DNA from: Nitrospinales bacterium
GTDB taxonomy: Bacteria; Nitrospinota; Nitrospinia; Nitrospinales; VA-1
Assembly: GCA_965262115.1 (NCBI GenBank)
Contig: OZ253496.1
Location: forward strand, 1,536,001 to 1,600,000
Length of the DNA stretch: 64,000 nucleotides
Direction of reading: 5' to 3'
This document shows positions 7,518-59,299 of this stretch, in pieces (the stretch's first letter is position 1; every line of letters starts with the position of its first letter). The translations under genes and the position numbers were made by a program. The notes below the pieces were generated by a model. It was given only the letters and a program-made list of their open reading frames with translations. It did no database searches and had not been told where the DNA came from.

Positions 7518-7634
7518 GTCATCGCGAGCGACTGTGTGAAATTCTTCATTTGCCTTCATGCCCCGAAGGGGTAAAAGGAGCGCGGCGATCCGGGTTTCTG
7601 GATTGCTTCGTCGCGGTTAGCTCCTCGCAATGAC
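7518..7634. repeat. CGTC REP pair carrying a 39-bp micro-element (7535-7573)
   Basis: Alignment with the copy at 2529-2639, which lacks the insert. Confidence 0.85.
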
Positions 7635-7682
7635 GGGTTATAAAAAGTTCTTGTTTTTGGCGGCACAGAAGTCATCATAAGA

Positions 7683-8465
7683 TCACAGCTCAATCAGGCC
7701 ATCCAGCGGGCTGCTGGCTGAGGCATAAAGTTTTTTAGGGATGCGTCCGGCTTCATAAGCCAGTCGGCCGGACTCCACCGCCATTTTCATAGCTAATGCC
7801 ATCTTGTACGGCTCTTTCGCGCTGGCGATGGCAGTGTTCATCAAGATTCCTGAAACGCCGAGTTCCATGGCGCGGCTGGCATCGGAGGCGGTGCCAACCC
7901 CGGCATCGATGATGACCGGCACCTTGACCGCTTCTAAAATCAGTTTGATGTTATACGGGTTGCGAATGCCGAGGCCGGAGCCGATCGGCGCCGCCAGTGG
8001 CATGACTGCGGCGCAACCGATGTCTTCGAGTTTTTTGCAGAGCACGACATCGTCGGTGCAATAAGGCAGAACATGAAAGCCGTCTTTGACTAATAGTTTA
8101 GAAGCCTCCAGCGTGGCTTCGTTGTCGGGGAACAGAGTTTTCTCGTCACCGATGACTTCTACCTTGACGATGTTTCCCAGTCTCGCTTCCCGCGCCAGTT
8201 CGCAAGTCATCACCGCCTCTTTCAGCGTGTAGCATCCGGCGGTGTTGGGCAGAAAAGTGTATTTTTTTGGGTCGAGATGATTGAGTATGGAGTCTTTATT
8301 TTTGTCCAGCTCAATGCGGCGAACGGCGACCGTCACAATTTCGGCGCCGGAAATTTCGATAGCCTGTCGGGTTTCGTCGAAGGATTTATATTTCCCGGTC
8401 CCTACAATCAGCCTGGACTTGAAGGTCTTGTCGCCAATTTTCATGAATTCTTGTTTTGTGTTCAT
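7683..8465 (-). CDS. thiG: Thiazole synthase
   Basis: [17 protein letters not shown] and [12 protein letters not shown] motifs. Confidence 0.97.
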
Positions 8466-8489
8466 ATTGCCAGTTTTAAAAAATTAAAA

Positions 8490-8693
8490 TTAAATTCCAC
8501 CACCGACGGCATGCACAATTTCAACCTCGTCGTTTTCCTGGATCGGGGTTGCGGCGTATTTGGATTTTGGAACGACTTGCTGGTTAAGGGCCATGGCGAA
8601 ATTTGGGGCCTGAATATCGAGCTCGCGAGCCAGGTCCTCAAGGTTCTGGCTTTTCAGGATTTCGCGGTTTTCGCCATTAATCGTCAGTTTCAT
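8490..8693 (-). CDS. thiS: Sulfur carrier protein
   Basis: 67 aa, C-terminal EIVHAVGGG(I); upstream of thiG. Confidence 0.92.
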   Translation of the reverse strand: MKLTINGENREILKSQNLEDLARELDIQAPNFAMALNQQVVPKSKYAATPIQENDEVEIVHAVGGGI

Positions 8694-8807
8694 AGGATAC
8701 GCTCCAGAAAAAGGACAAGGTCCAGTCCAAAATATCCGTTAAATCAATAAGACAAGACTAAAATCGCGGATCAAATGCAGGAGGGATTCTTAAAGGAAGG
8801 GCGGACA

Positions 8808-8846
8808 TAAAAAAAGCCGCATCCCAACCTTGGAGGAAATGCAGCG
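8808..8846 (-). terminator. Intrinsic terminator, likely the expression platform of the TPP riboswitch
   Basis: GCTGCAT..ATGCGGC stem followed by a T run on the minus strand, just 3' of the aptamer. Confidence 0.7.
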
Positions 8847-8866
8847 TATCTATTGTAAGATGGCCT

Positions 8867-8949
8867 CACTTCCCTTCGCTGGCATGATCCAGATCAGGTT
8901 CAAAGGGTCGTCCTGTTTTAGGACTCTCAGTTCAAAAACGCCCCCAGTG
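8867..8949 (-). promoter_or_regulatory. TPP riboswitch (THI box)
   Basis: GGGGGCG...CTGAGA...ACCCTTTGAACCTGATCTGGATCATGCCAGCGAAGGGAAG upstream of thiS. Confidence 0.95.
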
Positions 8950-9023
8950 TTCGTGACGAGTCTAGGTTATTTCATATTTCCTACAAGTCAACAATTATTG
9001 ACGTAAAAATAAAAAAGAGTAAT

Positions 9024-10220
9024 ATGCACATTATGTTTCCCACACTCCTGTTGCGCGTTTTGTTAATGGTTCTCCTTTTTGGGATCAGTGGTTGCGTCAC
9101 CCGCTCGGCGCCTGTAAATCCCCATTTTGAGATGCCACCCGAGAATCTGCCTAAAGCGCAGCTGGAGCTGTATAACCGCGCCATGGCGCAACTAAAAAAC
9201 AATCAACTCGACAACTCGATTGATCTCTGGAAACAGTTTTTGCAAAACAACCCGAGGTCGTTCAGGGGCCATAACAACCTTGGCATGGCGTTTTATTCCA
9301 GTGACCAACTGGCACCCGCCGTGACCTCTTTTGAAACCGCTCTGGCTCTGGAACCTTTTGACACTAAGATCAAGGATAATCTGAAAAGAGCATTACGGTT
9401 TCAGGTCACAATTTTGCGGGAGAACAAGGATTTTGAAACAGCTATCGAGCATCTCGAAAGGGTGAAAAAACTCACCGATCTTGGGGGAAAAGAGAAAGTG
9501 GCGCTGAAGATAGAAACCCTCCAGGACCTTATCTACGAGCAGGTCAAGCGGGCCAACACGTTGGAAGATTATGAAGCGTTTGTGGCGAAATATCCCGACA
9601 ACCCGAAAAACTCTGATGAGGCCCGGCGTCTGATTGCCAAAATTAAGCCGGAAGAATCCCTGTTGGGAGAATTTCCGGAAATGCAGGGAGACATGTTGCC
9701 CGACCCTGTGCAACGAACCACCCAGACCCGAGAGGAGGTTTTTGTCCCCGAGCCGATGGGAGAGAGCCGTGTTCCTATTGCTTCCGCGCCTGTGCGCAGG
9801 GAATCGATAGAAATCGTGGCGGAAACAAAACGGTCTGTTGATGAGGAAGAGTTTTTCGAGGAGACACTGGATGAGAGGTTGGAACCTGTGGTGGAAGAAG
9901 CTACGCCAAAATCGTCAGCAATGGAGCGGCCTCAAAGAACCGAACCGATTGTGGATCCGGATATGGAAATGAAACGGGAAACACCTTCGATTGCCGCTCC
10001 GGTCGAGGAACCTGTGCCAACAAAACGGGTGCGGGTCACGACCCAAAATGCCTCGCTTCGAGTGTGGGCAAAACCGGATGCCCGGTCTACAGTGATGTCC
10101 CAGATCCCCAAAAATTCGGTTGTGCCGGTTTTTCAGGATACCGACAAGTGGTTCCAGATTGAGTACCAAAAAGGCAAGAAGGGCTGGATCTCCAAAAAAT
10201 ATTCCCGGCTGGTAAATTAA
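9024..10220 (+). CDS. Lipoprotein with N-terminal TPR repeats, acidic linker and C-terminal SH3-like domain
   Basis: ISGC lipobox; HNNLGMAFY TPR; C-terminal WFQIEYQKGKKGWIS. Confidence 0.75.
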   Translation: MHIMFPTLLLRVLLMVLLFGISGCVTRSAPVNPHFEMPPENLPKAQLELYNRAMAQLKNNQLDNSIDLWKQFLQNNPRSFRGHNNLGMAFYSSDQLAPAVTSFETALALEPFDTKIKDNLKRALRFQVTILRENKDFETAIEHLERVKKLTDLGGKEKVALKIETLQDLIYEQVKRANTLEDYEAFVAKYPDNPKNSDEARRLIAKIKPEESLLGEFPEMQGDMLPDPVQRTTQTREEVFVPEPMGESRVPIASAPVRRESIEIVAETKRSVDEEEFFEETLDERLEPVVEEATPKSSAMERPQRTEPIVDPDMEMKRETPSIAAPVEEPVPTKRVRVTTQNASLRVWAKPDARSTVMSQIPKNSVVPVFQDTDKWFQIEYQKGKKGWISKKYSRLVN

Positions 10221-10369
10221 CCCCCTTCATCCAATTAGCTGATTCCTCCATCCATTACTGGATGTTATCCAGAAGTGTTGTTTGCTGTGATTCGAGTTGA
10301 CCCGGTTTGACCGCATGAATATAATCCGTTATTGGCAGGTAATTTAGATATCGAACTATTTGGAGAATT

Positions 10370-11337
10370 ATGGCAACGATTGATAAGGAAGAACTGGATG
10401 CATTGATCCAGAGCGAGTGGGATTATCTGGAATCCAAAAGAGGCGAGTGGAGCCTTCTTGAAGGGAAACAGGATATGGAAGTGCTGGAACATGTCTTGCG
10501 CTGTATCCTGCATATGGATTTGACCGAAGAAAAACCCCGCGAATTCAAAGAGTGCGTCAAGGTGCAAAACCCGGATGGCGGCTGGTCTAAAGAATCCCAC
10601 ACCGAAAAACTTCGATGTGGATCACGACTTTTGTTGGGCTCAAACTCTGCCGGGGTAATATGGCTCTCAAAGATCCGGAAATTCAAGTGACCGTTGATAA
10701 GACTCTGGAATATGTCCTGTCCATGCAGGAAGAAGACGGGCATTGGTCCGATGCTGAATGGTCTCATCTGGATACGACCTGTTCGGTCACGTGCTTTCTG
10801 ACCATCTATCAGGTCACTCAGGACAAGACCGATGACGAACGCATCAACAAAGCTCGTGTTAGAGGCTTCGAGTTTATCAAGGAATGGCAAAAGGATTCAG
10901 GACTCTGGAAAGATGAAACGTTCCATCCGGCAGGTATCGAAACCACGGCGCATTTAATGCAGTACACTCTGGTTCCCGCCTACTTCATGGACAAAATCGA
11001 GTATGCCGGAAAAATGTGCATGCAGGCGGCCGACTCCCTCGTGGCGGAACAAGCCGCAAACGGCAGTTGGGATAATGAAAATAATGACCACACCATGGAT
11101 GCCTGTCGTAACCTGATGCTGGTGTCGGACACCTTCAAGGATAAGGAAAAATACACGCCGATTATTGAAAAAGGGGTGCGCTGGCTGATCGATATTAAAA
11201 ATGAGCAGGGCTGGGGAGACTTCCCCGAGGAACCGAGCAACGTGGAACGCAGCGCAGATGGACTGGATACCCTGCTCAAATACCGGCGCTACTGCTCCAG
11301 CAAACCGATGTCCGATTTCTGGGCTTTTTCTAAATAA
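10370..11337 (+). pseudogene. Prenyltransferase/terpene-cyclase-repeat protein, frameshifted at A5 (10605-10609)
   Basis: QNPDGGW, QEEDGHW, QKDSGLW and QAANGSW repeats spread across two overlapping ORFs. Confidence 0.7.
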
Positions 11338-11350
11338 CCCCTTCAGTATT

Positions 11351-11525
11351 CGTCATCGCGAGCGACTGTGTGAAATTCTTCATTTGCCTTCATGCCCCGA
11401 AGGGGTAAAAGGAGCGTGGCGATCCAGACTTCTGGATTTACCCTTTCAGGGCACGAAAGCTTGGGAAGAATATCTCGGCTTCGTCGCTGTTGGCTCCTCG
11501 CAATGACGTGCTATGCAAGGGTTTC
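11351..11525. repeat. CGTC REP pair with two 39-bp micro-element insertions (11369-11407, 11439-11477)
   Basis: Alignment with 2529-2639 and 7518-7634. Confidence 0.85.
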
Positions 11526-11560
11526 CCTGTCAAGGGGTGTCAAGCTGGTAGAGGTTTTTT

Positions 11561-12316
11561 GTGGAAGCAATCATATTACTTGCCGGTTACGGCTCACGTC
11601 TGGATCGGCAAGATCTTGCTCATAAAGCGCTGCTGCCTTTCGGCGAGGAGACACTGCTTTCCCGCCACTTGAAATGCCTCAAAGCTCTGGGCATTCAGAA
11701 AACCCATCTCATCCTGGGTCATAATGCTCCGGTGCTGAAATCCTATGTGCAGGAACTCAACCTCGATCTGCCGGTACATTTCATTGATAACCCGGTCTAC
11801 CGCACCACCGGCAACACATTGTCGATGGTGATGGGACTCAAACACTGCCAGGACGAAACATTGATTCTCGATGGCGATGTATTGTATCCGCCCGAGGCCC
11901 TGCTCAATTATGTCCAAAAAGCGTCGCGCTCTTCATTTGCGTTGATACCTGCTGATATCGACGACGCTGAATGCGCGAAAGTATTGTTGAATCCATCAGG
12001 AACCATCCACGCTTTCATCACCAAACGAGAACTGACCGACGAGGAAAAATCCGGTTTCAGTTTTGGTGGCGAGGCTATAGGATTTTTCATGCTGCGCCAG
12101 GAAGATGTCCCCCGGTTTGTCGCCCTGTATGAAAATAATGAGTCCGCCTACCGACCCGTCCTTTGGGAAATCCCGTTCACCGAGTTTGCCCGAAACACCT
12201 CCCTGCATCCCTGGAACGTTGAGGAAGAAGGCTGTTTTGAAATAGACACCCAAGAGGACTACTCCACCGCATTGAAGCGCTTTCAATCCCACCCGGATCA
12301 ATACCAGCTCCCATAG
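11561..12316 (+). CDS. NTP-transferase (phosphocholine cytidylyltransferase/LicC-like)
   Basis: AIILLAGYGSRL, LDGD and EIDTQED motifs. Confidence 0.8.
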   Translation: MEAIILLAGYGSRLDRQDLAHKALLPFGEETLLSRHLKCLKALGIQKTHLILGHNAPVLKSYVQELNLDLPVHFIDNPVYRTTGNTLSMVMGLKHCQDETLILDGDVLYPPEALLNYVQKASRSSFALIPADIDDAECAKVLLNPSGTIHAFITKRELTDEEKSGFSFGGEAIGFFMLRQEDVPRFVALYENNESAYRPVLWEIPFTEFARNTSLHPWNVEEEGCFEIDTQEDYSTALKRFQSHPDQYQLP

Positions 12317-15614: not shown

Positions 15615-15620
15615 ACCCGG

Positions 15621-20775: not shown

Positions 20776-20965
20776 GGTCCTCCATATCAGGAGAGGTGAC
20801 TTGTAAGGCCGAGATAACTCGTTGCTTGCTTGATGGGTTACTCTTATTGCCACCGGCGGCTCGCCGGTTGGCCTCACGCCGAGTGGTGGAGAAATAACTT
20901 TAACTTAGCCGCTAAGATAGCTAAAATGTGATAGTGGGTCAAACCGTTTCCCCAATATCTCGTTT

Positions 20966-21331: not shown

Positions 21332-23305
21332 ATGAAAGCTATAGCCTGTGAATTAAAGTCTATTTGCAGAATCAGCCAGCGGAGAGCCTCCGCAGGCGTA
21401 ATGTTTTTCCTTGGCCTTCGTGCCCCGGAGGGGTACAAATTGCAATATCTTTCCCTGGCTAGAAATGATTTTCCCGGTTGGGCAAGCCATTGCCCAGTTG
21501 CCTCCACGGCTAGTGGGCGGAGAGCCTCCGCTGCAGGTTTATTCATGCTCCTGTTCCTGGCGAGTTGCACGACAATACCCGGAGTCCCGGATTCAACGAC
21601 TTCTGACTTGTCTTCTTCCTATGCGGTTTTGTCGTTCGAAAAGAAAAAACAACTTTCCGGGAAACTGGATACGCGGGATCCCCGCTCCTATTACCACTAC
21701 CTGCTGGCCCTGAAGGCGGAAAAGGGCTACCAGATGGATCAGGCCGCTGTGCATTATAAAGAAGTGGTCCAGTATGATCCGGAAACAGAAAGGTTCCATG
21801 AAAAATGGGTTCGCCTGTTGCTCCGTACCGGTCAGTTGGATGAGGCCGTTGAAGCCGGTCAAAATGCACTGGCCCGTTTTCCCAACAACGAGGAAATTTT
21901 GATGGTCCTGGGGGATATTCTGGCCAGTCAGGGGAAAGCGGAAGAGGCCATCACGTATTATGACCGGATTAGCCGGGTTGCCTCTGGAAATGCCCGGGCT
22001 CCGTTACTGAAAGGTTCTTTGTTAGAGGGGTTGGAGCGATTTAACCAGGCTTTTGAAGAGTATAAGAAAGCGGCGTTGATAGAGCCGAAAAATCCTCTGG
22101 TGCAGTTTTATCTGGGCCGGGCCTATTTGCGGGCCAACCAGTTGCCGGAGGCCGAAAAGAGTCTTGAAACGGCAGTTTCCCTGAAGCCCAACCTTCTCCA
22201 GGCCCGACACCATTTAGCCTGGGTGCTCGAACGTCAGGGCAGAACCGTTGAAGCGTTGAAAGAATATGGGCTATTGTTAAAGCTGACACCGGATAACGAA
22301 TATATTAAAAATCGGGTTTCACAGCTTCACTCTTCGGATTCTTTGGGTCAGAGCCCCTCGCAGGGTTTTGAAGCCATTCCCTCCGGCTTGGCAGAGCAAC
22401 CCGATATCCATATGCGTATCGCAACGATATATTTTGAGCAAACTCTATATATGAGAGCATTGGATGAGTTTCAGCTTGTTCTGGCCAAACACGATTACAA
22501 GGATCCGCATGTTCTCATGGCCCGGATTTATGAAACTCACGGCCGCCTGGACAAAGCCGTTGAGGAGTTTGAAAAACTCAGAAAGCTGGAACCGCAATCC
22601 CTGGACCTTCTCCTTTATACGGCCCGGCTCTATAGCTTGATGAAAAAAACACAAAAATCGGTGGGTCTGCTCAATGAGGCCGTTGCAATAGAACCGGAGA
22701 ACGACCAGATACATCACTCTCTGGCACTGGCCTACATGGCCCTCAAAAAAAATGAGGAGGCCATTGCAACCATGCGGAAAGCTTTGGCTTTGAACCCTCA
22801 AAAAGATTCCTACTATTTTGATCTGGGCGCCCTGATGGAAAAAGCCGGAGATTACCAAGGGGCCATTGCAAATATGAGGCTGGCGATTGAGTTAAATCCT
22901 TTGCACTATAACGCACATAATTTTTTGGGGTACATGTATGCGCTGGAAGGACACGACCTTGACCAGGCCCTTGAGCATCTGAAAAAGGCCCTGACCATCC
23001 AGCCTCGCAACGGCTATTTCCTGGACAGCCTGGGTTGGATTTATTTCAAAAAAGGCGAATCGGAAAAAGCTTTAACGCAAATTCAGAAGGCCTTGATCTA
23101 CACCGAGCCGGACCCGGTACTTTATGACCACCTTGGGGATATTCTGTTCTCTCTGGAAAATTACGATGAAGCCAATTGGGCATGGAGAAACAGCCTGTTT
23201 CTCACTGTGAATCCAAAAGACGACCTGGGTGGAGAAGCGCCGGACCCGCAAACACTTAAGAATAAAATTAATAAATCGAAAAGGCTTTTACAAAAGAGCT
23301 ATTAA
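21332..23305 (+). CDS. Multi-TPR lipoprotein (start uncertain; N-terminus contains repeat insertions)
   Basis: LASC lipobox; many TPRs; NFLGY and DSLGW motifs; upstream of the lolB-like gene and ispE. Confidence 0.85.
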   Translation: MKAIACELKSICRISQRRASAGVMFFLGLRAPEGYKLQYLSLARNDFPGWASHCPVASTASGRRASAAGLFMLLFLASCTTIPGVPDSTTSDLSSSYAVLSFEKKKQLSGKLDTRDPRSYYHYLLALKAEKGYQMDQAAVHYKEVVQYDPETERFHEKWVRLLLRTGQLDEAVEAGQNALARFPNNEEILMVLGDILASQGKAEEAITYYDRISRVASGNARAPLLKGSLLEGLERFNQAFEEYKKAALIEPKNPLVQFYLGRAYLRANQLPEAEKSLETAVSLKPNLLQARHHLAWVLERQGRTVEALKEYGLLLKLTPDNEYIKNRVSQLHSSDSLGQSPSQGFEAIPSGLAEQPDIHMRIATIYFEQTLYMRALDEFQLVLAKHDYKDPHVLMARIYETHGRLDKAVEEFEKLRKLEPQSLDLLLYTARLYSLMKKTQKSVGLLNEAVAIEPENDQIHHSLALAYMALKKNEEAIATMRKALALNPQKDSYYFDLGALMEKAGDYQGAIANMRLAIELNPLHYNAHNFLGYMYALEGHDLDQALEHLKKALTIQPRNGYFLDSLGWIYFKKGESEKALTQIQKALIYTEPDPVLYDHLGDILFSLENYDEANWAWRNSLFLTVNPKDDLGGEAPDPQTLKNKINKSKRLLQKSY

Positions 23306-34297: not shown

Positions 34298-34483
34298 CCC
34301 ACTAGCCGTGGGGGCAGATAGCCATAACTTTTTCCGGCAAAAAAAGTTGTCGCGGCTTAATGGGTTGGGGTGATTGACCTCCAGTGGGGTTGCCGTGCCC
34401 GAGTGAGAGGATGTTTTATTCTTCTTTAGCTTTCATGATCCTGTGATTTCCCCTGACGTTAACTTCATGCCCTGCAGGGTACA

Positions 34484-35449
34484 ATGAGTAATAACTTTCA
34501 CCGGCCTCCGGCAACCCAGCAAATTTATAAATCCACAATTCCTACGCAATACCACGGTTTTGTTATCGAACAGTATTTTTCCTTACGATTTCCCTATCAG
34601 ACCCGGCAAGCGTGGGTGGCGCAGATTATAAACGGAGACATCAGGTTAAACGGAGAAAAGGCCCAACCCGGGTGTATCCTTCATAAGGGGGACAGCATCA
34701 TCACTCATGCGGGGGTTCGTCAGGAACCTCTGGCGGACCGCAGGTTGAGGGTTGTTTATCAAGACAGGCATATCCGGGTGTTCAACAAGCCGGCACCCAT
34801 TCCCGTGCATCCGAGTGGCCGGTATTTTCAAAACAGCATGACCGAAGTCTTGAAGGAAATGTTTCCGGAGGAGGTTCCACGTCCTGTGCAACGGTTAGAC
34901 GCAACCACCACCGGGTTGATCGTGTTTGCCCGGTCCCGTCAGGCTGCGGGATTCTTAATGAAAGAGTTTCAAAACCATCGAGTGCAGAAAGAATATCTGG
35001 CCTTGGTGAAAGGCAAGCCGGAGAAAAAGCAGTTCACTTTGACAGCCCCTATTGGAGTGGTGGCCGGGGTGCAACGAGGCGTGGGAGAGGGAATCAGGAA
35101 ACCGCAAGCCGCGACCACCCAGGTTGAATGGTTGGCCTCCACCGACACTCATTCTATTTTAAAAGTGGTTCCCTTGTCTGGCAGAACCAATCAGATTCGC
35201 GTGCATTTATCCAGTCAGGACCTGCCAATTTTAAATGATGAGGTTTATGGAGAAGGGAACCTGGAAAGTTATGAGTATGGACTGCATGCCTGGAAGCTGA
35301 GTTTCCATTGTTTTGACCGCTATCTGGAGTTTGAAGTAGCTCCTCCTCCACATTTCCAATCTTTTTGGGAAGATTTTGATAGAAAAAGTTTATGGACTTA
35401 CTGCAATCATCACTTGTATCGGATGCACCCGCGAGTCAGGGAAAACTGA
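34484..35449 (+). CDS. RluA family pseudouridine synthase
   Basis: NKPA, QRLDATTTG and GRTNQIRVH motifs. Confidence 0.9.
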   Translation: MSNNFHRPPATQQIYKSTIPTQYHGFVIEQYFSLRFPYQTRQAWVAQIINGDIRLNGEKAQPGCILHKGDSIITHAGVRQEPLADRRLRVVYQDRHIRVFNKPAPIPVHPSGRYFQNSMTEVLKEMFPEEVPRPVQRLDATTTGLIVFARSRQAAGFLMKEFQNHRVQKEYLALVKGKPEKKQFTLTAPIGVVAGVQRGVGEGIRKPQAATTQVEWLASTDTHSILKVVPLSGRTNQIRVHLSSQDLPILNDEVYGEGNLESYEYGLHAWKLSFHCFDRYLEFEVAPPPHFQSFWEDFDRKSLWTYCNHHLYRMHPRVREN

Positions 35450-39597: not shown

Positions 39598-39725
39598 AGA
39601 CCTTTGCATAACCCCGAGATTCTTCGTCACGTTGTTCCTCAGAATGACAAAACAGCCCTTTATTGTCATGCTGAGCTTGTCGAAGCATCTCGCTTTTCTG
39701 CTTTATCGACTTACGCAAAGGTCTC
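39598..39725. mobile_element. ~128-bp MITE with AGACCTTTGC...GCAAAGGTCT ends enclosing a CGTC REP pair (copy without micro-element)
   Basis: Near-identical in reverse orientation to 49640-49888 once the insertions are removed. Confidence 0.8.
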
Positions 39726-41830: not shown

Positions 41831-42072
41831 TTTTTCAATTAATTAGACTGTTGGCTCACCCGGGTAATTATTCAGCAAAAGTTTGACCGGCTTTTTTCGA
41901 TGAACTGGATGGGGAATTGCCCCCTGCCTGATTGTCTAGGTTATGAGTGCCTCCTTGCGGACCTTCTGAATTGTGTTGTAATACAGGGCATCTCAAAAAA
42001 TTGCTTTTGTACCCCTGTGGGGCATGAAAGCTGATGGGGAATATAACAGCCACGAGCGGCCATTATGACAAG

Positions 42073-42480
42073 GAGACCTTTGCATAAGTCGAAAATCGAG
42101 ATGCTTCGACATACCCCTCCGGGGCAAGAAGGCAAAGGTCGAGTATCACTAGCTCAGCATGACAATACTGGGCCATTTTGTCATGCTGAGGAACAAGGCG
42201 ACGAAGACGTGACATTTTTCCTTACCCTTCGTGCCCGGCACGGGTAATCTCGCTTTGCATAGGCTTGGGGATTTGGGGTTGCCGTCTTTGCGAGGAGGCT
42301 TTAGCCGACGCGGCAATCCAGGTTTTGGTTTTTCTCTCGGGGTCATGCTGAGCCTGTTGAAGAATCTCGCCTTGCATAGGCCTGGGGATTCTTCACTGCG
42401 TTCAGAATGACAAGAAACGCCGGTTTGTCATCCTCAAGGAGCCAACGGCGACGAATGATCCGGGGTTACGCAAAGCTCTC
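42073..42480. mobile_element. Composite MITE (GAGACCTTTGC...GCAAAGCTCTC) with several CGTC REPs and two 39-bp micro-elements
   Basis: Terminal inverted repeats and internal homology to 39598-39725. Confidence 0.75.
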
Positions 42481-44723: not shown

Positions 44724-44773
44724 AAAACTCCTGTAGTTCGGCGGTGTTGACCTCCCTCCCTGTCAAGTCTTTT

Positions 44774-46218
44774 GGGCCTGTTGCCCAAACCTTTTGATAG
44801 AAGCGTGGGTTTATAAGGATTATAATTTATCTGGCTAGTTTTTGTTCTTCTACAGTTTTAATCTTTTTTTCCGGGAGTCATTCCCATGATGAAACGCGAA
44901 ACCCCGTCCCAGAGCGTATTCTTTAACTAGGCCGTGAATCTTGAAGATCGGAGTCCTCCAGATCACGAGTTGCGGCAAGTTTCTTCCGTTTTGAACCTGG
45001 ATTTTGTGTATGAACAAGTAAAGGATAAGTACGGCCACAATGGCAACGAATCGGTTCCGCCTCCGGTGATGCTAAAACTGATGTTGCTGCTCATCTTTTA
45101 CAACGTTCGTTCCGAACGTGAGTTGATGCGTACGCTTCCGTAGCGGATGGATTGGCTCTGGTTTCTGGGTTATGGTCTGGACACTGTGATTCCTAATCCC
45201 AGCGTATTATCGAAACCAAGGGTTACGAGAAACTTTGTGAGAGACTGGGCGAACCGGAGGAATCCAATAATCGGCGGGTACGCAGAGAAGTTAATGTTCG
45301 TTACCGTTCTACGACCGCTCCGGATGCGGCGATTGTGCCGCGCGGGGGTTCGCGTTTGCGTTATAAAGTACATCGTTCGGTGGATCCGGCGGCGGAAGTG
45401 ATCACCACGACTGAGGTGACACGTGGCGATGTAGACGATTCGCATCGGTTCAGTGCCATGCTGGAAGCGCACCAGGAAAATACCGGGATGTCAGCGAAGA
45501 CCGCAGTGGCCGACAGTAAATACGGTACGGTGGAAAACTTTCTTGCCTGCAAAGATATGGGCATTCAACCCCATATGCCCGACCTGAAAAAGAGTCAGGA
45601 AACAGACGGCAAACGTCATGGAATATTTTCCAACAGCGCATTTACATTCGACCCTGAAAGCGATACCTATATCTGCCCGGTGGGCAAACGCTTGCGGCTG
45701 AAGACCTGCCGGTTAAAAGAGCAGCGTATGTATTACGCCGCCAGAGCAGACGACGGTAATGCCTGCGAACTAAAATCCCAATGCACACGTAGTGCAACCG
45801 GACGCACGATCCAACGGGTTGATCGTCAGGACGACCTCGAAGAAATGCGCGCAATGGCAAAGACCCCAAAAGGAAAACAAGACCTGAAAACGAGACAGCA
45901 TCTTATGGAACGGTCATTCGCATATTCGGTGCCCTTGGGATTCAAAAGGGCACGGTGGCGAAGATTATGGCTGATCCAGATTCAAGAATACCTGACCGCA
46001 TCCATTCAAAACATCAAACGAATGATCCAACACCTGAAAAAACCGATTCACAGTCATGCACTGAAGGTCGTACAACGATTCAAAAACTGCTTGCAGGCTT
46101 CAACTTGGGGAGGAATGAATCTGGGTTTTGGGATTTCAATTTAGAAAAGAAAATTCGTAAGAAATACACAAAATTAATATCAGCAACCCTTCACGGCAAC
46201 CCTTTGGGCAACAGGCCC
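44774..46218 (+). mobile_element. IS1182-family element with defective transposase
   Basis: Perfect 16-bp TIRs GGGCCTGTTGCCCAAA (44774-44789/46203-46218); TTTT on both flanks; VRSERELM, ADSKYG and YICPVGK motifs; in-frame TAG stops and an internal deletion. Confidence 0.85.
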
Positions 46219-46278
46219 TTTTCTTGACTACAAGAGGGTAAAAGAAGCGTGGCAATCCAACCCTCCCCCAGCCCCTCC

Positions 46279-46647
46279 CTATGAAGGGAGGGGAGGCAGA
46301 TGTTTTAAAATCTTTTCAAAAACTCCATCCAGGTTTTCATAAACATCCTGATTGGTAAATCGCAGAAACCGTATCCCCATATCTTCGATGGTTTTCTGCC
46401 GGATTTCATCCGATTGGATCGCCGTTCCACTGAAATGAGAGTCTCCATCGATTTCAATCGCGAGTTTTGCCGATGGGCAATAAAAATCCAGAATGTATCG
46501 GTCGACACTGTATTGTCGCCCAAACTTATATCCACCGGCCTGTCTGTTTCGCAAAAACTGCCACAAAGCCACTTCCGCTAGCGGCATTTCTTTGCGCAAG
46601 GATTCTCTTTTGGTTTTTTCTGTGTTTCTGTTGAAAATTTTTACCAT
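46279..46647 (-). CDS. DUF559 (Vsr-like PD-(D/E)XK) endonuclease flanked by 39-bp inverted repeats
   Basis: RESLRKEM, YILDFYC, IEIDGDSH and LRFTN motifs. Confidence 0.88.
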   Translation of the reverse strand: MVKIFNRNTEKTKRESLRKEMPLAEVALWQFLRNRQAGGYKFGRQYSVDRYILDFYCPSAKLAIEIDGDSHFSGTAIQSDEIRQKTIEDMGIRFLRFTNQDVYENLDGVFEKILKHLPPLPS

Positions 46648-48284: not shown

Positions 48285-49604
48285 GGGAAACAGTTACAGG
48301 TTCCGCAATCAGGTCATAATCCGCCGCGTGCTTTATGGTTACCGGAATTATTTCTCCGGGTTCGGCTTCACATTTTTCGAGGATGACCTGTCCGTCAATA
48401 TCCGGTGCCTGGGAGGCGAGCCTTCCCGTCATCAAATAATTTTCCTGCGGGTCAAAACCTTCCACCAAAACCGGTTCCACCCTGCCCACGCGCTCCCGGT
48501 TTTTTCTGAGAGCAATATCTTTTTGAAATTCCATCAGGATATCGCGGCGCTCTTCTTTGACCTCCTGCGGTACCCGGTCGGGATAATCGAAGGCAGTGGT
48601 GCCTTCCTCATCCGAATAAGTAAAAATCCCAACATGGTCGAATTCCATTTCACAAAGAAACCGGACCGTATGTTTAAAATGCGTCTCGGTCTCCCCCGGA
48701 AATCCGATGATAAACGTGGTTCTCAGCGCCACATCGGGAATTTTTAATCGAACTTCTTCGAGCATTTTCCGCACCCCGCCTGCCGTTTCATGCTTTTAAG
48801 CATCTCGTCATGCGTATGTTGCAGAGGCACATCAATGTAGCGGCAGACTTTGGGCTCTGAGGCGATGAACTCAATCACCTCCGAGTTCAAAAAGGTCGGG
48901 TAACAATATAAAAGCCTGATCCACTCCAACCCATCGACCTTGGCCATTTCTGCCAGCAAGCGAACCAGTCCGTCTTTCATTCCCAAGTCAAAACCGTACA
49001 TGGTGGTGTCTTGCGAAATCAGGTTAAATTCTTTGACTCCCTTGCTGGCCAGGTTCTCGGCCTCGGCCAGAATGGATTCCGGCGAGCGACTGCGCATCGG
49101 CCCACGCATTTTCGGAATGATGCAAAACGCGCAACGGTTGGAGCAACCTTCGGAGATTTTTAAATAAGCAGTATAAAAAGCTGTGCTCAACAACCGGTCG
49201 GTGTACGACTCATAATATTCGGCGGGTGTGGCGACATGGTTTTTGGATAACGGGTCTGTATCCCCAATGATGTTTTTCAATTGAGGGTACTGGCCCACCC
49301 CCAGCAGGTGGTCGATTTCTGGAATTTCATCAAGCAGTTCCTGACTATACCGTTCGGCCAGACAACCGGTGACGACCAACTGTTTGCATTCCCCCTCGGT
49401 CTTGTGCCGGGCCATTTCCAGAATCGTGTCGATCGATTCCTTTTTGGCAGACTCTATAAAGCCGCAAGTGTTGACAATGATTACCTCTGCATCTTCTTCA
49501 TTCTGGGTGAGGCTGAATCCAGAAGAAACCAGATCGCCCAGAACCCTTTCGGTGTCCACCGTGTTTTTCGGACACCCCAAACTCACCATGCCAATTTTTT
49601 TCAT
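48274..49604 (-). pseudogene. rimO: Ribosomal protein S12 methylthiotransferase, frameshifted near 48775
   Basis: SLGCPKN, NTCGFI, CSNRCAFC and C-terminal APDIDG TRAM motifs across two ORFs. Confidence 0.9.
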
Positions 49605-49639: not shown

Positions 49640-49888
49640 AGACCTTTGCGTAAGTCTATAAAGCAGAAAAGCGAGATGCTTCGAGATACCCCTACGGGGC
49701 ATGAAGTTTAATGAAGAGGATATCACATACCCCTCCTACCCCTCCGGGGCATGAAGTTAATGGAAGGGGATATAACAGGCTCAAGAAGGCAAAGGTCGAG
49801 TATCACTAGCTCAGCATGACAATAAAAGGCTATTTTGTCATTCTGAGGAGCTATTGCAACGAAGAATCTTGGGTTATGCAAAGGTCTC
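49640..49888. mobile_element. MITE/CGTC composite carrying three stacked 39-41 bp micro-elements
   Basis: Filled counterpart of 39598-39725. Confidence 0.85.
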
Positions 49889-49937
49889 CTTCTTAGGGGG
49901 AAGTTCTTTTAAGTATTACCCTTCCGGGGCACGAAGG

Positions 49938-50627
49938 CTAATGAAGAGTATCACGTGCGCTTGAGCGTTTGGTCCGCTTTATAGGCAATGCAGTGCTGGC
50001 AGCATGTGATACCCCTTCACTTGTTTCATGCCCCGTAGGGGTACGCCGAGCGGTTAACTTTTTATCCATTTTGCGAATGAGTTCATCAAAACTCTTTTTT
50101 TTAATCACCTTGTAAAACTGACTGCGCAAATTGTTCCGCATGCTGATCCCGTCCAGAATGACATCCACCACCTGCCATTTACCTCCGGCCAGAGTCAGAT
50201 GAAAATCGATGTCGACTTCCCCTTCCTTTTCATGAATCACCGTCAGGGGAACCACAACAACTTTCTTTTTTTCTTTGGTTTTTCCATATTCCAGATCCAG
50301 TTCGGCAAAAAATTTCGCAGAACTGGGAAATGCCACATGGACGAACAGGTCCCCGAGCAGGGTTTTAAACTTTTCTCGCTCGGGATCACTGCGCTTAGCC
50401 CAATGTTTTCCTAAAGCTTTTTTGCTGATTTCTGCGACATTCAGCAAACCAAGAGCAGATTGGGAATGCTTCTGGTTGTCTGCCTCTTCTAAACCCGAAA
50501 CATCCGCTTTAATCTGTTGAATTTCTCCCAACAACTTTTTCACCGAATCCTGGGGGTCTTTGGTTTCTGCCCAGAGCGGACTGGTGGTCAAAACAATAAA
50601 AAGAACAGCACTTAAGGTTTTTTTCAT
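49938..50627 (-). CDS. MlaC/Ttg2D-like periplasmic lipid-binding protein with repeat-derived C-terminal extension
   Basis: Signal peptide; ALGKHW and WQVVDVILDGISMRNNLRSQF motifs. Confidence 0.8.
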   Translation of the reverse strand: MKKTLSAVLFIVLTTSPLWAETKDPQDSVKKLLGEIQQIKADVSGLEEADNQKHSQSALGLLNVAEISKKALGKHWAKRSDPEREKFKTLLGDLFVHVAFPSSAKFFAELDLEYGKTKEKKKVVVVPLTVIHEKEGEVDIDFHLTLAGGKWQVVDVILDGISMRNNLRSQFYKVIKKKSFDELIRKMDKKLTARRTPTGHETSEGVSHAASTALPIKRTKRSSARDTLH

Positions 50628-53216: not shown

Positions 53217-53763
53217 GCGCGGGGCCGACTGCAATAGCTTTCCCTGGCAAGCAATAGGTTAGCCCGGCCTGATGAGCCGCCGAGGGCAAAAACTTCTCCC
53301 CTGACAGGTGGACGTGATATTTTTCCTAAATTTTCGTACCCCGAAGGGATATTGAGGGGGGTTGATTTTTTAACTCCCTCTTTCTCAAACTCGAACAATA
53401 GGAAGACGTTTTGTTCGACGGGTTGGGGTGATTGACCACAAGAAGGGGGTTTGTCGTCATTGCGAACGAAGTGAAGCAATCCAGTTGCTAGTACCCCAAA
53501 ACCGTATGAAACACAGCACCAATTCCGACACACCAGTAAATGTCGGCACCAATAAGGTTCCAAACTGCGGCTGATTTCTCTAAAGGTCATTGCATCACCG
53601 CCTTAACCACAAAGAAAAAGAACGCGAGCATGGTGAGGACGGTGTTCGCCACCGCCGACCAGATCATGATTGTGTGCGCAATATTCCCATCACTAACTTC
53701 ATGCCCCGTAGGGGGGGTATAATAGTTTTTCCATATCACTTGCCATTCTGAGTTTGTAGGTCT

Positions 53764-53863
53764 GTCATGCTGAGCTAGTGATATTTGATCTTTGAATTCT
53801 TGCCCCGGAGGGGTATGTCGAAGCATCTCGATTCTTCGATTTTTCGACTTATGCAAAGGGCTC
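53764..53863. repeat. Half MITE/CGTC REP with a 39-bp micro-element (53777-53815)
   Basis: Reverse-strand homolog of 42073-42163. Confidence 0.75.
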
Positions 53864-53959: not shown

Positions 53960-54328
53960 CTATGAAGGGAGGGGAGGCAGATGTTTTAAAATCCTTTCGT
54001 AAACTCCATTCAGGTTTTCATAAACATCCTGGTTGGTAAAACGCAGAAACCGTATTCCCATATTTTCGATAACCTTCTGTCGGACCTGGTCCGATTGTGC
54101 AGCCTCTTCGCTAAAATGAGAATCCCCATCGATTTCAATCGCGAGTTTTGCCGATGGGCAATAAAAATCCAGAATGTATCGATCAACACTGTGTTGCCGC
54201 CGAAACTTGTGTCCATTTGCCTGCCTGTTTCGCAAAAACTGCCACAAAGCCACTTCCGCTGGGGGCATTTCTTTGCGCAAGGACTTTCTCCTGGTTTTTT
54301 CTGTATTTTTATTAAAAATTTTTACCAT
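53960..54328 (-). CDS. DUF559 endonuclease, paralog of 46279-46647, flanked by inverted repeats
   Basis: Colinear 122-aa paralog; KFRRQH and IEIDGDSH motifs. Confidence 0.88.
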   Translation of the reverse strand: MVKIFNKNTEKTRRKSLRKEMPPAEVALWQFLRNRQANGHKFRRQHSVDRYILDFYCPSAKLAIEIDGDSHFSEEAAQSDQVRQKVIENMGIRFLRFTNQDVYENLNGVYERILKHLPPLPS

Positions 54329-54508
54329 TGTTTTTTTGTTTTTCATATCCCCTCCCTTCATATGGAGGGGTTTGGGGAGGGCTGGATTAAAGCAATGCAT
54401 TATCCTGAACTTCCCCTGGTTGAGTGGACACATTGAAAGTGTGGATAATACATTTTTGGAGGTGTGTCTATGGTGAGCAAGCGAAGGAGTTTTAGTAAGG
54501 AGGTGGGA

Positions 54509-54697
54509 ATGCAGTACCAGCTCAAAATTGTTTTCGTGGATAATCAGGAGCTGGTTCTCGATACGACCCAAAAGCATGGTTTCAGCGATGACCTGGAACT
54601 GTTCGAGGTGACCACCTCGGAGGAAATTTTTGTGGTTCCCCTCAAACAGAGCAAATATATCTCCCGCGACGCCGGAATCTTTCAAATAGGAGTCTAA
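54509..54697 (+). CDS. Small hypothetical protein (62 aa)
   Basis: AAGGAGGT RBS before MQYQLKIVF. Confidence 0.6.
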   Translation: MQYQLKIVFVDNQELVLDTTQKHGFSDDLELFEVTTSEEIFVVPLKQSKYISRDAGIFQIGV

Positions 54698-54778
54698 CTT
54701 CCCCGCATTAGAGATTGACACGAGCAGATGACTTAGCTAAAATCCGTTGCATGTTTATTAAAACGGGGGGGGGGGATA

Positions 54779-57569
54779 GTGGTTACTTTGAAAAGCCGTG
54801 CTGTATTGAGTGCTGTGCAGTCTGCGTCCAGTTCTGGTTCGTCGGGTGAGGGGCACGCCCTATGCGCTGTGAGAAACCCCGCACTACCGAAGAAAGTCTT
54901 CCGCCATTTCCTGGCTTCATGCCCGTCCCTGGTCCGGTTATGCACAGTCGCCATCCTTGTCCTGCTGTTCATGGCCCCCGTTGCCAGCGCCCAAGTCACC
55001 GCCAATGCCGGGGACGATCAGATCGTCGCAGAGGGCGCGTTCGTCACGCTTGACGGCGGTGACAGTTCCGGCCCCGGCAGTGCGCTGACCTATGAATGGA
55101 GGCAGACCGCCGGTACTGAGACCGCTCTCCCAGTCGTGCTAGACGACATTGCGGCAATCTCACCAACCTTCACTGCGGGTACCGCCGTGGAACTGGAATT
55201 TGAATTGACCGTGAGTGATGGTACCTCCTCGGATACCTACGAGGTGGTGGTCAGTGTAGTTCCGAACACTGTCCTGAGTTTCGGTACGGCCACAATCTCC
55301 GACCGGACTTTTATATTTACACAGAATACACTGGTTGGCGAAATGACCGCCCTGCACGTAGCCAGTGGCGGCAACGTGCCCCTGACCTACAGCATAATAG
55401 AGACGCTGCCAGCGGGGCTAAGCTTTAATCCTGTCACCCGCACAATCAGCGGCACCCCGACCGCCGTTAGCCAGAGAGCTATCTATACATACGAGGTCAG
55501 CGACGCGGATGCTGACACCGTTAACAACAGTGTTTTCATCACCGTTAATCCCGACCCCGCCATCATAGTCAACCAGGCTCCGACCGCCGTGGTCGTGCAG
55601 CTTGCGGATCAGACCCCAAGCCCGTTGATAACGGAGGACATAGTCAACCCCCCCCCATCACTGGCGTTGACGGCGGCGTTCTGATCACGCTTGACGGCAG
55701 CCGCAGTTTTGATCCCGACGGCGATACCCTGGCCTACCTCTGGACCCAGGTTCTTGGTCAGGATATTCTGGCCGAAGGAGCCTTCTCCTCTGAAGAAATA
55801 AGCCCTCAAATCACCATTCCGGCCGACTTCCCTGTCGGAACGGAGCTGGAGTTCAGATTGACTGTGACCGATAGTCCGCAGCCGGGCCAGCCAAGCCTAT
55901 TCACCATCGACACCGTGACCATCACCGTCGTCACGGACGGGACTGCTCCGGTCATTACCCTGAACGGTATGGCGACGGTCTCCATCGATCTGGGTTCTAC
56001 CTATGCGGACGACGGGGCAAGCGCCACAGACAACATTGACGGGGATATTTCCAGCTCGATCACAACGACCATTACCGACAGCAGCGGTGCTGTGATCGCT
56101 GCGGTCGATACCGGTACGGTTGACGTCTACACCATCACCTACACGGTCTCCGATGCGGCGGACAACCCGGCCGTTGCCGTTATTCGCACCATCAGCGTCA
56201 CCGCTGATGTGACGAGGTTTGCCGACCTCAATAACGCGGTCCTGCCGGAAGTGGCGCGTGCCATAGCAGACCAGACGGTGGGTGCGATAACAGAACGTAT
56301 TGGTCAGGCCAGGAATGGTACGACCCGTTCTGTGTCACCATCGCCGGGCAGTCCACATTGACCGGGGCGGCATCTGCCCACGGGCAGGCCATAGCCGATG
56401 GCACGCTGAGTCTGAAGGATGTACTGGGTAACTCCGACTTTGTACTGCCGCTGGATGATATGGGCGGCATGGACAACGGGATGCTCTCCTCCCTGACCTT
56501 ATGGGGCGGGGGCGGCTACCGCAGCTTCGAAAGTTCCGGCGGGAGCGTGAACTTCGACGGCGACCTGTTCAGCGCCCATCTGGGACTGGACGCCCGACCG
56601 CGCGACGATCTGCTGATCGGTCTGGCGGCGTCCTGGAGCCAGAGCGATCTTGACTACAGAGGAGGCCTCGACCTGAACGGCGAGCACAAGCTGGACCTCA
56701 CCAGCGTCCACCCCTATGTGAGCTGGGAAGTATTGGCCGGACAACTGGACCTGTGGGCCACTGCGGGCTACGGCTGGGGTGACCTTGAGATCGCCAATGA
56801 CGGGCTAGACCGTGTATCGAGTGATGTCGAGACGCGGACTGTGAGTGTGGGCGGTGATTATCAGTTGCCGCAGATAGGATCAACCACGTTCCGGCTCAAG
56901 GGTTCAGCCTTGCTGACCGAGCTGGAAGTGGATGGCAGCGATGATATAGAAGCGCTGGATGTGGAGGCCAGCCTGTTTCGGATGGTCCTGGAAGGGGCCC
57001 ATAAGCACATGTTGTCTGACGGGGCTTATGTGGAGCCGAGCCTGGAGGCTGGAGTGCGGTATGACGGCGGCGACGGCGAAACCGGTTTCGGGGCCGAGCT
57101 GGGTGCCGGTTTCCGTTACACCGATCCGACCGTCGGCCTGACTCTGGAAGGCAGGGCGCGGACTCTGGTGGGACGGGACAATTATGAGGAATGGGGCGTT
57201 TCCGGCCTGATTCTTCTGGAGCAGGGCCGAAACGGGCGGGGACTGTCGTTCAGTCTGAGTCCCGGCTACGGCAGTACAGACAGCGGCACGCAAAAAGTAT
57301 GGCAGGAGGGTCTGCGTGACGAGATCAGCCGGGATTACGGCGTGCGGTTGGACACCAGTCTTGGTTACGGGCTGACCGCTCCCGGCGGACGGGGACTGCT
57401 GACTCCCTACAGCGAGATGACCTTCGGCGGCTCTTCCAGGAGCTACCGCCTGGGGATGAGATGGGAACTTGATGCGTTGTTTGACCTGAACCTGACCGGT
57501 GAACGCAGTGAAAGCAACAGCAACACCACCGATCACGCCATCATGCTGAAGGGCGATATCCGGTTTTAA
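54779..57569 (+). pseudogene. Autotransporter-like surface protein (PKD/Ig/DUF5011-type repeats + C-terminal beta-barrel) with two frameshifts
   Basis: ANAGDDQ..VTLDG, LPAGLSF..ISGTP and APVITLNG..ATDNIDGD motifs; terminal Phe barrel; frameshifts at C9 55648-55656 and near 56332. Confidence 0.8.
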
Positions 57570-57666
57570 CCCGGTTGTGGTCATTGAGTGAAGCGCGGCT
57601 CAAGCCGCACTTCCGGCAACCCTGCCAGTCCTGCCGTCTGCAACGGTCTTGTGTGGGCGTGGCCCG

Positions 57667-58206
57667 TTAATAATGGATCATGGAGTGAACGGGGGTGTTT
57701 TTGAGTTTTTCCCGGCCTTTCAGGAAGTCTAGTTCGATCAAGAAGGCGGCTTCCACAACTGTTACATTGCTAAAATTTTTCTGGATCAAATCGAGGGTGG
57801 CGGCCAGGGTTCCTCCGGTGGCCAGCACATCATCAATGACGAGGATATTTTGTCCTGGCCGGAATGCATCCTGATGAACTTCGACGGTATCGGTTCCGTA
57901 TTCCAGGGAATAGGTTTCCTGAAAAGTTTTGTAAGGCAGTTTGCCCGGTTTTCGAACCATGACCACTCCTGTACCCAGCGCATAGGCCAGGGCTGAGGCA
58001 AAGATAAACCCGCGCGCTTCCACGCCGACCACCACGTCTACCCGCTTATCTGCGTAACGATCCTTCAGGGAATTAATGGTTTTCTGGAAGGCGACAGGGT
58101 CGCCCAGGAGCGGCGTGATATCTTTAAAGATGATTCCCTCTTTGGGGAAGTCTGGAACATCGCGGATGATTTGTTTCACAGCGGTCTCACCTTGCTTAAA
58201 ATTCAT
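57667..58206 (-). CDS. apt: Adenine phosphoribosyltransferase
   Basis: PDFPKEGIIFKDITP, EARGF and DDVLATGGT motifs. Confidence 0.96.
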   Translation of the reverse strand: MNFKQGETAVKQIIRDVPDFPKEGIIFKDITPLLGDPVAFQKTINSLKDRYADKRVDVVVGVEARGFIFASALAYALGTGVVMVRKPGKLPYKTFQETYSLEYGTDTVEVHQDAFRPGQNILVIDDVLATGGTLAATLDLIQKNFSNVTVVEAAFLIELDFLKGREKLKNTPVHSMIHY

Positions 58207-58263
58207 ATTTGCTCTGAGTTGTGACCCTGGTTTTTTATCAAAGATCTGGATAAAAAGAAAACC

Positions 58264-58971
58264 TTATCTTTTGAGAGGCAGATATTTTACAGGATCTTTG
58301 GGATGCGTGTCGTTTCGCACTTCAAAATGGAGATGGGATCCGGTGGACCGGCCGGTGCTTCCCATCAGAGATATTTTTTGTCCCTGCTTGACCCGGCTTC
58401 CTTTTTTAGCGATGAGTTTTGAGTTATGCGCATAAAGGGTGGTCAGATGATGTCTGTGTTTGATGATGACCATTTTCCCATAGCCGGTGGGCCCCCAGCC
58501 ACTAAACACCACCTCACCTGCGGCAGCGGCATGAACGGGAGTTCCTTTGGGTGCGGCAATATCGATTCCTTCATGCCTGCGCCCGTTTCGCATCCCGAAT
58601 CGAGACGTCAGAGTTCCCTTCGTCGGCCAGACGAGAAAACCTTTGCGGGGTTTGACGGTGGGCGATGATTTCTTTTTTGCGGTACGGGATACAGGTTTAT
58701 CGGGGACCTTTAAAACCCGGCGGGCTCCCGGTATCCATAACCGGATTCCTTCCCGGAGTTTTGCGGGATCTCTTATATGGTTGGCGCGCCGCAGAACTTC
58801 CACACCCAGATCATAGGTTTTGGCAATGCGGTACAGGGTCTGGCCTTTTTGTACCGTGTGGTACACCCCTTCCCCCTTTTCGGGCCAGGGATCGAATTGG
58901 AAACTCTGGCATCCCGTAAGGAATAAAATGATAATAAAAAAAACTGATTTGTAATAATGATGGCAGGACAT
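58264..58971 (-). CDS. LysM + M23 peptidase lipoprotein (NlpD-like)
   Basis: LTGC lipobox; LysM; HEGIDI and HLHFE motifs. Confidence 0.9.
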   Translation of the reverse strand: MSCHHYYKSVFFIIILFLTGCQSFQFDPWPEKGEGVYHTVQKGQTLYRIAKTYDLGVEVLRRANHIRDPAKLREGIRLWIPGARRVLKVPDKPVSRTAKKKSSPTVKPRKGFLVWPTKGTLTSRFGMRNGRRHEGIDIAAPKGTPVHAAAAGEVVFSGWGPTGYGKMVIIKHRHHLTTLYAHNSKLIAKKGSRVKQGQKISLMGSTGRSTGSHLHFEVRNDTHPKDPVKYLPLKR

Positions 58972-59299
58972 TTTATAGGGGCTTGAATATGCTCTAACTT
59001 ATTGAAAATTGTAGCATTTTTTCAAATTCGTTTACAAGTTTCGCAGCATCCTGTATAACCGAAAAATCGTTTTAGCGGAGAGCCTCCGCTGGCAACCGGC
59101 AAGGGCATGAAGGCTAATGATGGGGATATCACAAGCCAAGATAATTTTTTCTAGCCAGACGTGATATTTTTCTTAAGTCTTCGTGCCCCTGTGATATCCC
59201 CTCCGCTAAATTCATGCCCGGAACGGGTAGAAGGGGTAAATAGTTATTACCAGTTGCCTCCACGGCTAGTGGTGGGATTTAGAATCGGGAAAAACTACG

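Follow-up and report, generated by a model that had tools for sequence, protein, structure and literature searches.

How a DNA repeat of about 40 bases, which encodes no protein, comes to occupy hundreds of places in a bacterial genome is the question raised by a 64,000-nucleotide stretch (the window; G000:C1:1536001-1600000) of a 2.68-Mb genome, labelled G000, from the Nitrospinaceae, marine nitrite oxidisers. An earlier note on this DNA had described about 20 copies of a micro-element of 39-41 bp, and the present analysis bears out that this is a mobile element of extremely small size, without a gene, whose ends are asymmetric and which does not duplicate its target. A new aspect of the element is that its insertion is associated with the rewriting of a few neighbouring bases. 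In the open full-text literature (subscription papers, ISfinder and supplements lay outside the search) neither this element nor any tiny bacterial repeat that rewrites its flanks was found described, and a query of Rfam returned no matching family.

Precise insertion and altered flanks

The profile scan proposed in the earlier note, with a profile built from 14 window copies, gave hundreds of matches in G000 (332 at E<=0.01, 401 at E<=1); the reversed genome, which served as the control, had 0 at E<=1. The genome carries about 330-400 copies. Exact empty sites of 9+9 bases were identified for 88 of the 382 hairpin-end (left-end) matches genome-wide, and the comparison of empty with filled sites fixes the element length at 39, 40 or 41 bp and shows that no base of the target is duplicated. 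The empty sites named earlier exist, GGATTGCTTCGTCG at window positions 2605 and 7600 and CTTCGACAAGCTCAGC at 39685 on the minus strand. The claim of clean boundaries without target duplication stood for the insertion point, which is exact, but the flank is often altered 3-5 bases away.

Mobility was assessed against G013, which is 95% identical to G000 in coding DNA and of which 84% was covered by the comparisons. The sites orthologous to 265 G000 copies were empty in 14 cases, filled in 18 and unclear in 53, while 180 copies had no anchored orthologue; conversely, 300 G013 copies corresponded in G000 to 3 empty and 23 filled sites, with 85 unclear and 189 lacking an anchored orthologue. Precise empty orthologous sites are thus found in relatives, and what is polymorphic is the single element unit. 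Co-inheritance within a larger repeat, which the earlier note had said would count against mobility if it held for all copies, was seen for some copies (7535 and 11369 in the window), but others are precisely polymorphic. Copies are nested in one another at several positions and in both orientations, and head-to-tail arrays also occur.

The earlier statement that most insertions are in hairpin repeats is true when copies are counted, but only weakly so when distinct targets are. Across 62 target classes the median fold was -5.9 kcal/mol, compared with -4.35 kcal/mol for the intergenic background, and folds below -8 kcal/mol made up 14.5% and 11%, respectively. The target preference in these classes is weak (A/T at -2, 84%; C/G at +2, 85%; C/T at +3, 80%; C at +5, 63%; plus positions lie to the right of the element and minus positions to the left of the insertion point), and they have no fixed tetra- or pentanucleotide 5' of the insertion. 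There are no shared bases at the crossover, no replication-strand bias (149/310, p=0.53) and no transcription orientation bias (78 vs 80).

The alteration of the right flank is recurrent. Where a copy is nested in the loop of another, the right arm of the outer copy reads (G/C)GCTCA, with CT at +3/+4, in 18 of 26 cases; intact copies have CT at these positions in 0 of 712 and GG in 683 of 712. In an unrelated repeat, CTCGGCG|TG-GG-GCCA, CT is present at +3/+4 in 11 of 14 filled sites and in 0 of 162 empty ones. Orthologous pairs at two loop sites and two CTCGGCG-family sites have GG in the empty G013 site and CT in the filled G000 site, with near-identical distal flanks in all four; in a fifth pair the changes run from +1 to +6. 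A third family, TCT(T>A)CAC, has T>A at +4 in 15 of 68 filled sites, partly in tandem arrays, and in 0 of 63 empty sites, while in a fourth, G(C/T)TAC, position +5 is changed to C in 7/7 filled and 0/39 empty sites. No rewritten site that had been emptied again by precise excision was seen, CT being absent from all empty sites, and there is no excision footprint. Position +7 is left unconverted, the pair between base 16 and the last base of the outer copy (described below) being intact in 18 of 19 cases. Among 54 collapsed events, mismatches numbered 8 at +3, 10 at +4 and 5 at +5, with 5 at -2, 4 at -5 and 1-2 at most other positions.

The outcome depends in part on the inner lineage. One lineage retains GGGGCA in 5/5 listed cases, which is what a flank travelling with its lineage would give, and another has CT in about ten and GG in one. 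In addition, copies with similar interiors resemble one another in their near flanks even where the sites are otherwise unrelated (mean z 2.1-2.8 at -4..-1, +2 and +4).

Changes of this kind could also postdate a clean insertion, through ectopic gene conversion among filled repeats or a structure-induced mutation hotspot. Filled sites do cluster in repeat families, one T>A family of G013 lies in tandem arrays, and most insertions show no change. However, the same two-base change is found with at least six inner sequences and 17 distinct left contexts in the loop family, and in two unrelated target families and several genomes. Outer copies moreover keep their own 16/last pair and interiors, and no fixed CT template was found inside the element. 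We regard a later origin of the CT flanks as improbable.

Anatomy of the element and the route of insertion

Positions 1-19 of the element are nearly fixed and positions 20-33 are variable, and its logo includes no terminal inverted repeats. A covarying pair, bases 6 and 10, closes the three-base loop T-N-C, read as G-N-A on the reverse strand; the GNA triloop is a stable DNA triloop. Read on the reverse strand, the element ends in this hairpin, with a six-pair stem that includes one G-T. Base 16 and the last base are Watson-Crick partners in 459 of 505 de-duplicated copies, which were called without use of this pair. Among 55 distinct reverse-strand sequences, 97% of the cells were paired, with 29 double changes, a result exceeding 500/500 shuffles and every slid control, in a set where the fetching pattern fixed many columns for most rows and only two variable pairs are informative. 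The mean 16/last pair probability in a circular ensemble was 0.68 for the reverse strand and 0.50 for the plus strand. This pairing brings both ends of the element, and hence both flanks, side by side.

From these features and the rewritten flanks we infer a mechanism to which we give about an even chance, namely that new sites receive a copy of the element through DNA synthesis guided by short homology, along with a few bases of the donor flank. A single strand of the donor site would fold, the hairpin and the 16/last pair looping the element out and joining the flanks. The joined flanks, roughly 5+5 bases, would pair loosely with the target strand in a mismatch-tolerant manner, and after a nick at the junction DNA synthesis would run through the element and on into as many as about six donor bases at one side; alternatively, the strand might be incorporated as an oligonucleotide. 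The donor site would retain its own copy, and the enzymes at work would be nucleases, polymerase and ligase, either general ones of the host or repeat-associated ones. Copying of this kind would account for the exact register, the lack of duplication, the end-joining pair, the lineage-linked flanks, the missing excision footprint and the absence of a transposase.

Several observations weigh against this proposal. The flank sharing extends to +7 and +9 (z 2.2), and some relatedness of target repeats remains. In a wider set of 53 events, changes at +3/+4 were only in modest excess (18/106 vs 56/583, p=0.04); a comparable excess at -5/-6 came chiefly from variable paralogues, which makes left-flank conversion uncertain. 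Filled sites are in general partly non-independent, through duplicated repeats and orthologues, so that the Fisher p values are nominal. The changed bases match the flank of the nearest kin only somewhat more often than the background (0.40 vs 0.30, 42 changes). Flanks are unchanged at many insertions and near-identical interiors stand at unrelated flanks as well, so that the homology would have to be loose. Position +1 mostly remains as in the target while +3/+4 change, with conversion of +1 in 2 nested cases only, a pattern that a simple contiguous tract does not predict. At the 16/last pair, T-G (32) exceeds C-A (8) in plus-strand notation, which fits pairing on the plus strand, whereas the hairpin fits the reverse strand. 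Templated copying thus offers no neat account of why +1 mostly stays target-like or of which strand is the donor, and neither its enzyme nor its intermediate has been seen.

The same anatomy can be read differently. A 39-41-nt single-stranded DNA circle might be excised and integrated by a strand-transfer enzyme, either a remote HUH protein or a tyrosine recombinase working in the manner known from the attC sites of integrons, with the flank change as a by-product of junction repair. This would give the exact length, the lack of duplication and the head-to-tail arrays, and when the reverse-strand ends are joined the hairpin is lengthened through the junction, like that of a circular attC cassette (the 0.68 vs 0.50 above). 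A circle would, however, be flank-free and hence offer no source for lineage-linked flank bases, and shared crossover bases and strand bias are both lacking. The search for circle junctions suggested in the earlier note (four runs, contigs only) gave no usable circle or excision joint, and there was no circle joint among those listed (15/91). The enzymes argue in the same direction, and we consider this route rather unlikely. Y1 transposases (PF01797) number 0 in G000, G013 and G007, genomes that are 94-98% complete with 125-475 element copies, and G000 has only XerC/XerD-like tyrosine recombinases and one conserved protein without the catalytic tyrosine. The latter was rejected as a mobiliser because it was not found in G013 or G007. 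This XerD/IntI-like protein (L189:1117-1947; G000:C1:2164564-2165397) ends just before the catalytic tyrosine and is without both histidines. Of the 120 phylum genomes, 52 have homologues, many of which match as far as that same end, and it is possibly a non-catalytic DNA-binding relative of the recombinases.

Mobilisation by HUH enzymes of the IS200/IS605, IS91 or RAYT type, which had been favoured from the window alone, is unsupported, given the lack of Y1 in high-copy genomes, the lack of strand bias and the flank rewriting. PF01797 is present in 7 of 23 genomes of the genus, including G009, which has zero copies, and its absence from the three high-copy genomes speaks against Y1 as the mobiliser. 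A scan of G000 proteins for HUH motifs yielded no candidate, and the IS91 test (PF04986) gave 0 matches in G000, with a control that also returned nothing. PF02486 and PF03432 were found in 0/5 genomes, with positive controls, and relaxase PF03432, Rep_trans and RecT were found in none of the high-copy genomes tested.

An RNA donor is a further alternative, in which transcripts of the element and its flank would template gene conversion or target-primed reverse transcription. The tolerance of T-G at the 16/last pair on the plus strand (32 vs 8) is what U-G would give, and one-sided co-conversion resembles retrohoming. An RNA-mediated route has reportedly been discussed for the SDR repeats of cyanobacteria. 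On the other side, the conserved GNA triloop, its middle base being free, is a motif of DNA, and orientation relative to transcription is unbiased (78 vs 80). Reverse transcriptase was rejected as a candidate: it is lacking in G007, G019 and G069, 3 of the 5 genomes tested, and present in G000 only as a stop-interrupted fragment. We therefore find an RNA donor hard to favour and assign it a low probability. The G000 region with the broken reverse-transcriptase fragment (G000:C1:47600-53600) is gene-poor, contains simple repeats and may be foreign or misassembled.

A resident recombinase of the IS110 family (316 aa; about 25 copies in G000, e.g. G000:C1:2384322-2385272, +) is closely tied to the element. 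It sits in the element hairpin at a CT core, with CT on both sides, and its left non-coding end includes guide sequences matching both halves of the element. Of the IS110 copies, one breaks off at the internal guide, and another lies inside the non-coding end of a further copy. That this recombinase and its bridge RNA move the element might be suggested by these guides, by the CT cores and by the right arm of the element, which directly follows 24 of 26 IS110 right ends in G000. Yet the element has no core repeat at its ends and enters unrelated targets, and G013 has more elements than G000 with one frameshifted IS110 copy in the 84% read. We consider a role of IS110 as the mover highly improbable; the abundance of elements alongside one broken IS110 rather makes IS110 a parasite of the element.

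The remaining candidates offered no dedicated enzyme. A Pfam scan of 260 of the 288 soluble basic proteins common to G000 and G013 (out of 1,496 shared, with 84% of G013 covered) showed Cas1/Cas2, XerC/D, SfsA, two HNH proteins, SRAP, RuvA, RecO and GIY-YIG, many proteins being without a family, and no dedicated mobiliser was found among the 260. DUF559 nucleases were rejected, with no match at 1e-8 in G007, G004 and G069 and presence in many zero-copy genomes. MutS occurs in 5/5 genomes tested; small GIY-YIG genes do so too, zero-copy G009 included, a distribution that speaks neither for nor against them. Two GIY-YIG genes, L193:1483-1821 and G000:C1:2378867-2379190, are flanked by CGTC-type hairpin repeats, although such repeats are described as having no enzyme of their own; the second gene is truncated, with a micro-element after it. 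Apart from IS copies and orthologous neighbours, no gene family is found repeatedly next to the element. The long copies enclosing a gene that the earlier note had proposed to look for did not appear among 48 orphan left ends, and no autonomous long copy was present in 20 stretches from low-copy genomes. Internal guide pairing was also rejected: no fixed-register complementarity or identity was seen (largest |z| 2.6, about 95 registers, 79 target classes), mutual information gave no complementary pair, and duplex energies carried no signal (28 tests, 94 clusters).

Copies in the window and in the phylum

In the window, the element is present in all 16 intervals listed earlier, with correct coordinates and strands, and the count of about 20 becomes 20 once nested and tandem copies are resolved; 19 genome-profile matches fall inside the window. 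The 39-bp copy at 7535..7573 (-) lies in a CGTC-type hairpin repeat and is identical to the 39-bp copy at 11369..11407 (-), which is in a paralogous repeat, and this identity indicates co-duplication with the surrounding repeat. The 39-bp copy at 11439..11477 (+) is inserted at GGATT|GCTTCGTCG, with empty paralogues at 2605 and 7600. Further 39-bp copies are at 21397..21435 (-), 42010..42048 (+) and 53313..53351 (-), and one at 42208..42246 (-) has a compensated CCCG/CGGG stem. Two 39-bp copies, at 42112..42150 (+) and 53777..53815 (-), are inserted at CTTCGACA|AGCTCAGC, and the former has an empty paralogue at 39685 (-). Decay is seen at 53677..53719 (-), where the C run is expanded, and in the hairpin end of the 40-bp copy at 59094..59133 (+).

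Nested copies include a decayed pair at 34412..34490 (-), in which the inner copy (about 34442-34481) lies within the hairpin loop of the outer one, whose right arm is of the rewritten type, GGATCA instead of GGGGCA (-). At 59160..59238 (-) an inner 40-bp copy (59190-59229) lies in the outer loop, with GGGGCA kept and the flank unrewritten. A 41-bp copy at 49687..49727 (+) stands head-to-tail ahead of the copy at 49728..49807 (+), itself an outer copy in two parts (49728-49736 and 49778-49807) around an inner 41-bp copy (49737-49777); the rewritten flank of the outer copy has CT at +3/+4 (49780..49781, +). Nearby, the 39-bp copy at 49917..49955 (+) corresponds to an exactly empty G013 site with unchanged flanks, and the 39-bp copy at 50005..50043 (-) is inserted at CTCGGCG|TG..GCCA, a site also filled in G013 and G015, with CT at +3/+4 (50001..50002, -). 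Approximate empty members of its target family are found in the window at 20869, 33653 and 40203.

Other features of the window surround these copies. [quoted passage not shown] The rimO open frame at 48744-49604 (-) encodes 286 aa and spans the first 271 of 432 model positions; since the G013 orthologue has about 430 aa, the window gene appears frameshifted. A transposase region of the IS1182 family lies at 44756-46230, with a second copy at G000:C1:1514996-1516470, and DUF559 nuclease genes are found at 46279-46647 and 53960-54721, between CCCTCCC..GGGAGGG hairpins, with 8 matches to the family in G000. Elsewhere, the truncated copies at G000:C1:898458, 1391199 (-) and L089 have next to them their own left end and flank once more, in reverse complement, which suggests fold-back template switching at the hairpin.

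A survey of 120 genomes of the phylum with a 19-base left-end pattern, one mismatch being permitted, gave matches in 45, from single matches up to 475 copies in G013. These genomes belong to several genera of the element's own family and two genera of a second family, and the records with pattern matches belong to Nitrospina, Nitrospinaceae and Nitrospinota. In the second family (L041-L045, L051-L056) the element persists only as a passenger at one position of the CGTC repeat, with the last five bases changed. Full copies also occur on two viral contigs, in a metagenome-assembled genome (MAG) of KSB1 and in a MAG labelled Neomarinimicrobiota, which may be mis-binned. A search of low sensitivity, with a query of 39 bases, matched nothing among PLSDB plasmids or INPHARED phages. 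Pattern matches in Parcubacteria, Firmicutes and Frankiaceae were rejected, as they lack the second end, and one partial match in G067 was also dropped. A Firmicutes MAG (L072, L104) carries a different tandem repeat family with the same 19-base hairpin end and without the second end.

Relation to known elements and meaning

The closest known elements would be SDR1-8, the small dispersed repeats of Nostoc and its relatives. Passages of PMC5861425, PMC4390886, PMC2884548 and PMC3116915 describe these as very small mobile repeats of cyanobacteria. Like SDRs, the micro-element is shorter than 100 nt, dispersed, polymorphic, precisely inserted and nested, with a compensated structure. It differs in its length of 39-41 bp (SDRs have about 20 bp), its phylum, the lack of a fixed target word, the GNA-triloop end and the end-joining pair. 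Elhai and colleagues reportedly noted the nesting and compensated secondary structure of SDRs in 2008. They are also said to have discussed a gene-conversion route for them, which would narrow the novelty of the present proposal.

With REP/REPIN-RAYT and IS200/IS605 systems, as passages of PMC3116915, PMC3733652 and PMC5027513 describe them, the element shares asymmetric ends, a single-strand hairpin and the absence of target duplication, and like REPs, which are targets of the IS110-type IS621 according to PMC11208160, it is a target of IS110. In contrast to these systems, there is no Y1/HUH gene in high-copy genomes and no GTAG/CGTC tag, the element is a single unit and not an inverted doublet, and its flanks are rewritten. 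The lagging-strand bias that IS200/IS605 shows, according to PMC5027513, is not shared by the element. Recurrent flank rewriting is not a known outcome of HUH peel-and-paste.

As in integron attC sites, the stem would run on past the point where the ends are joined, and a base at the hairpin foot covaries with the first base, but the stem is far shorter, the logo has no RYYYAAC/GTTRRRY boxes, no crossover bases are shared, and no IntI-type enzyme is common to the high-copy genomes. Intron homing with co-conversion and insertion of the prime-editing type likewise copy in a sequence, keep the donor and change neighbouring bases. The targets of the micro-element are instead ectopic, with about 5 loosely matching bases per side, and no homing endonuclease or reverse transcriptase is linked to it. 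It is distinguished from a MITE by the lack of terminal inverted repeats and target duplication, and from an IS110 donor by the lack of a core dinucleotide repeated at its ends. In sum, the element lacks defining features of IS200/IS605 elements, REPINs, MITEs, integron cassettes and IS110 donors.

The spread of very small bacterial repeats that have no transposase of their own still calls for an explanation, and CGTC repeats are described in PMC3733652 as lacking one. Insertion of the present element can be recognised by a measurable trace, a fixed change 3-5 bases away from the junction, which allows copy-in with co-conversion to be told from cut-and-paste and makes the mechanism testable. 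In its broadest form, which we put forward as a speculation more doubtful than probable, the element would be a transposase-free, self-templating piece of DNA, a 40-base strand whose own flanks serve as the guide and which host repair writes in while editing the neighbouring bases; such a parasite would resemble prime editing, and its mechanism possibly lies behind many enzyme-less tiny bacterial repeats. If copying-in by guided synthesis is true, a folded 40-base strand would suffice for scarless insertion and local editing, with a bearing on genome evolution and on minimal tools for templated insertion.

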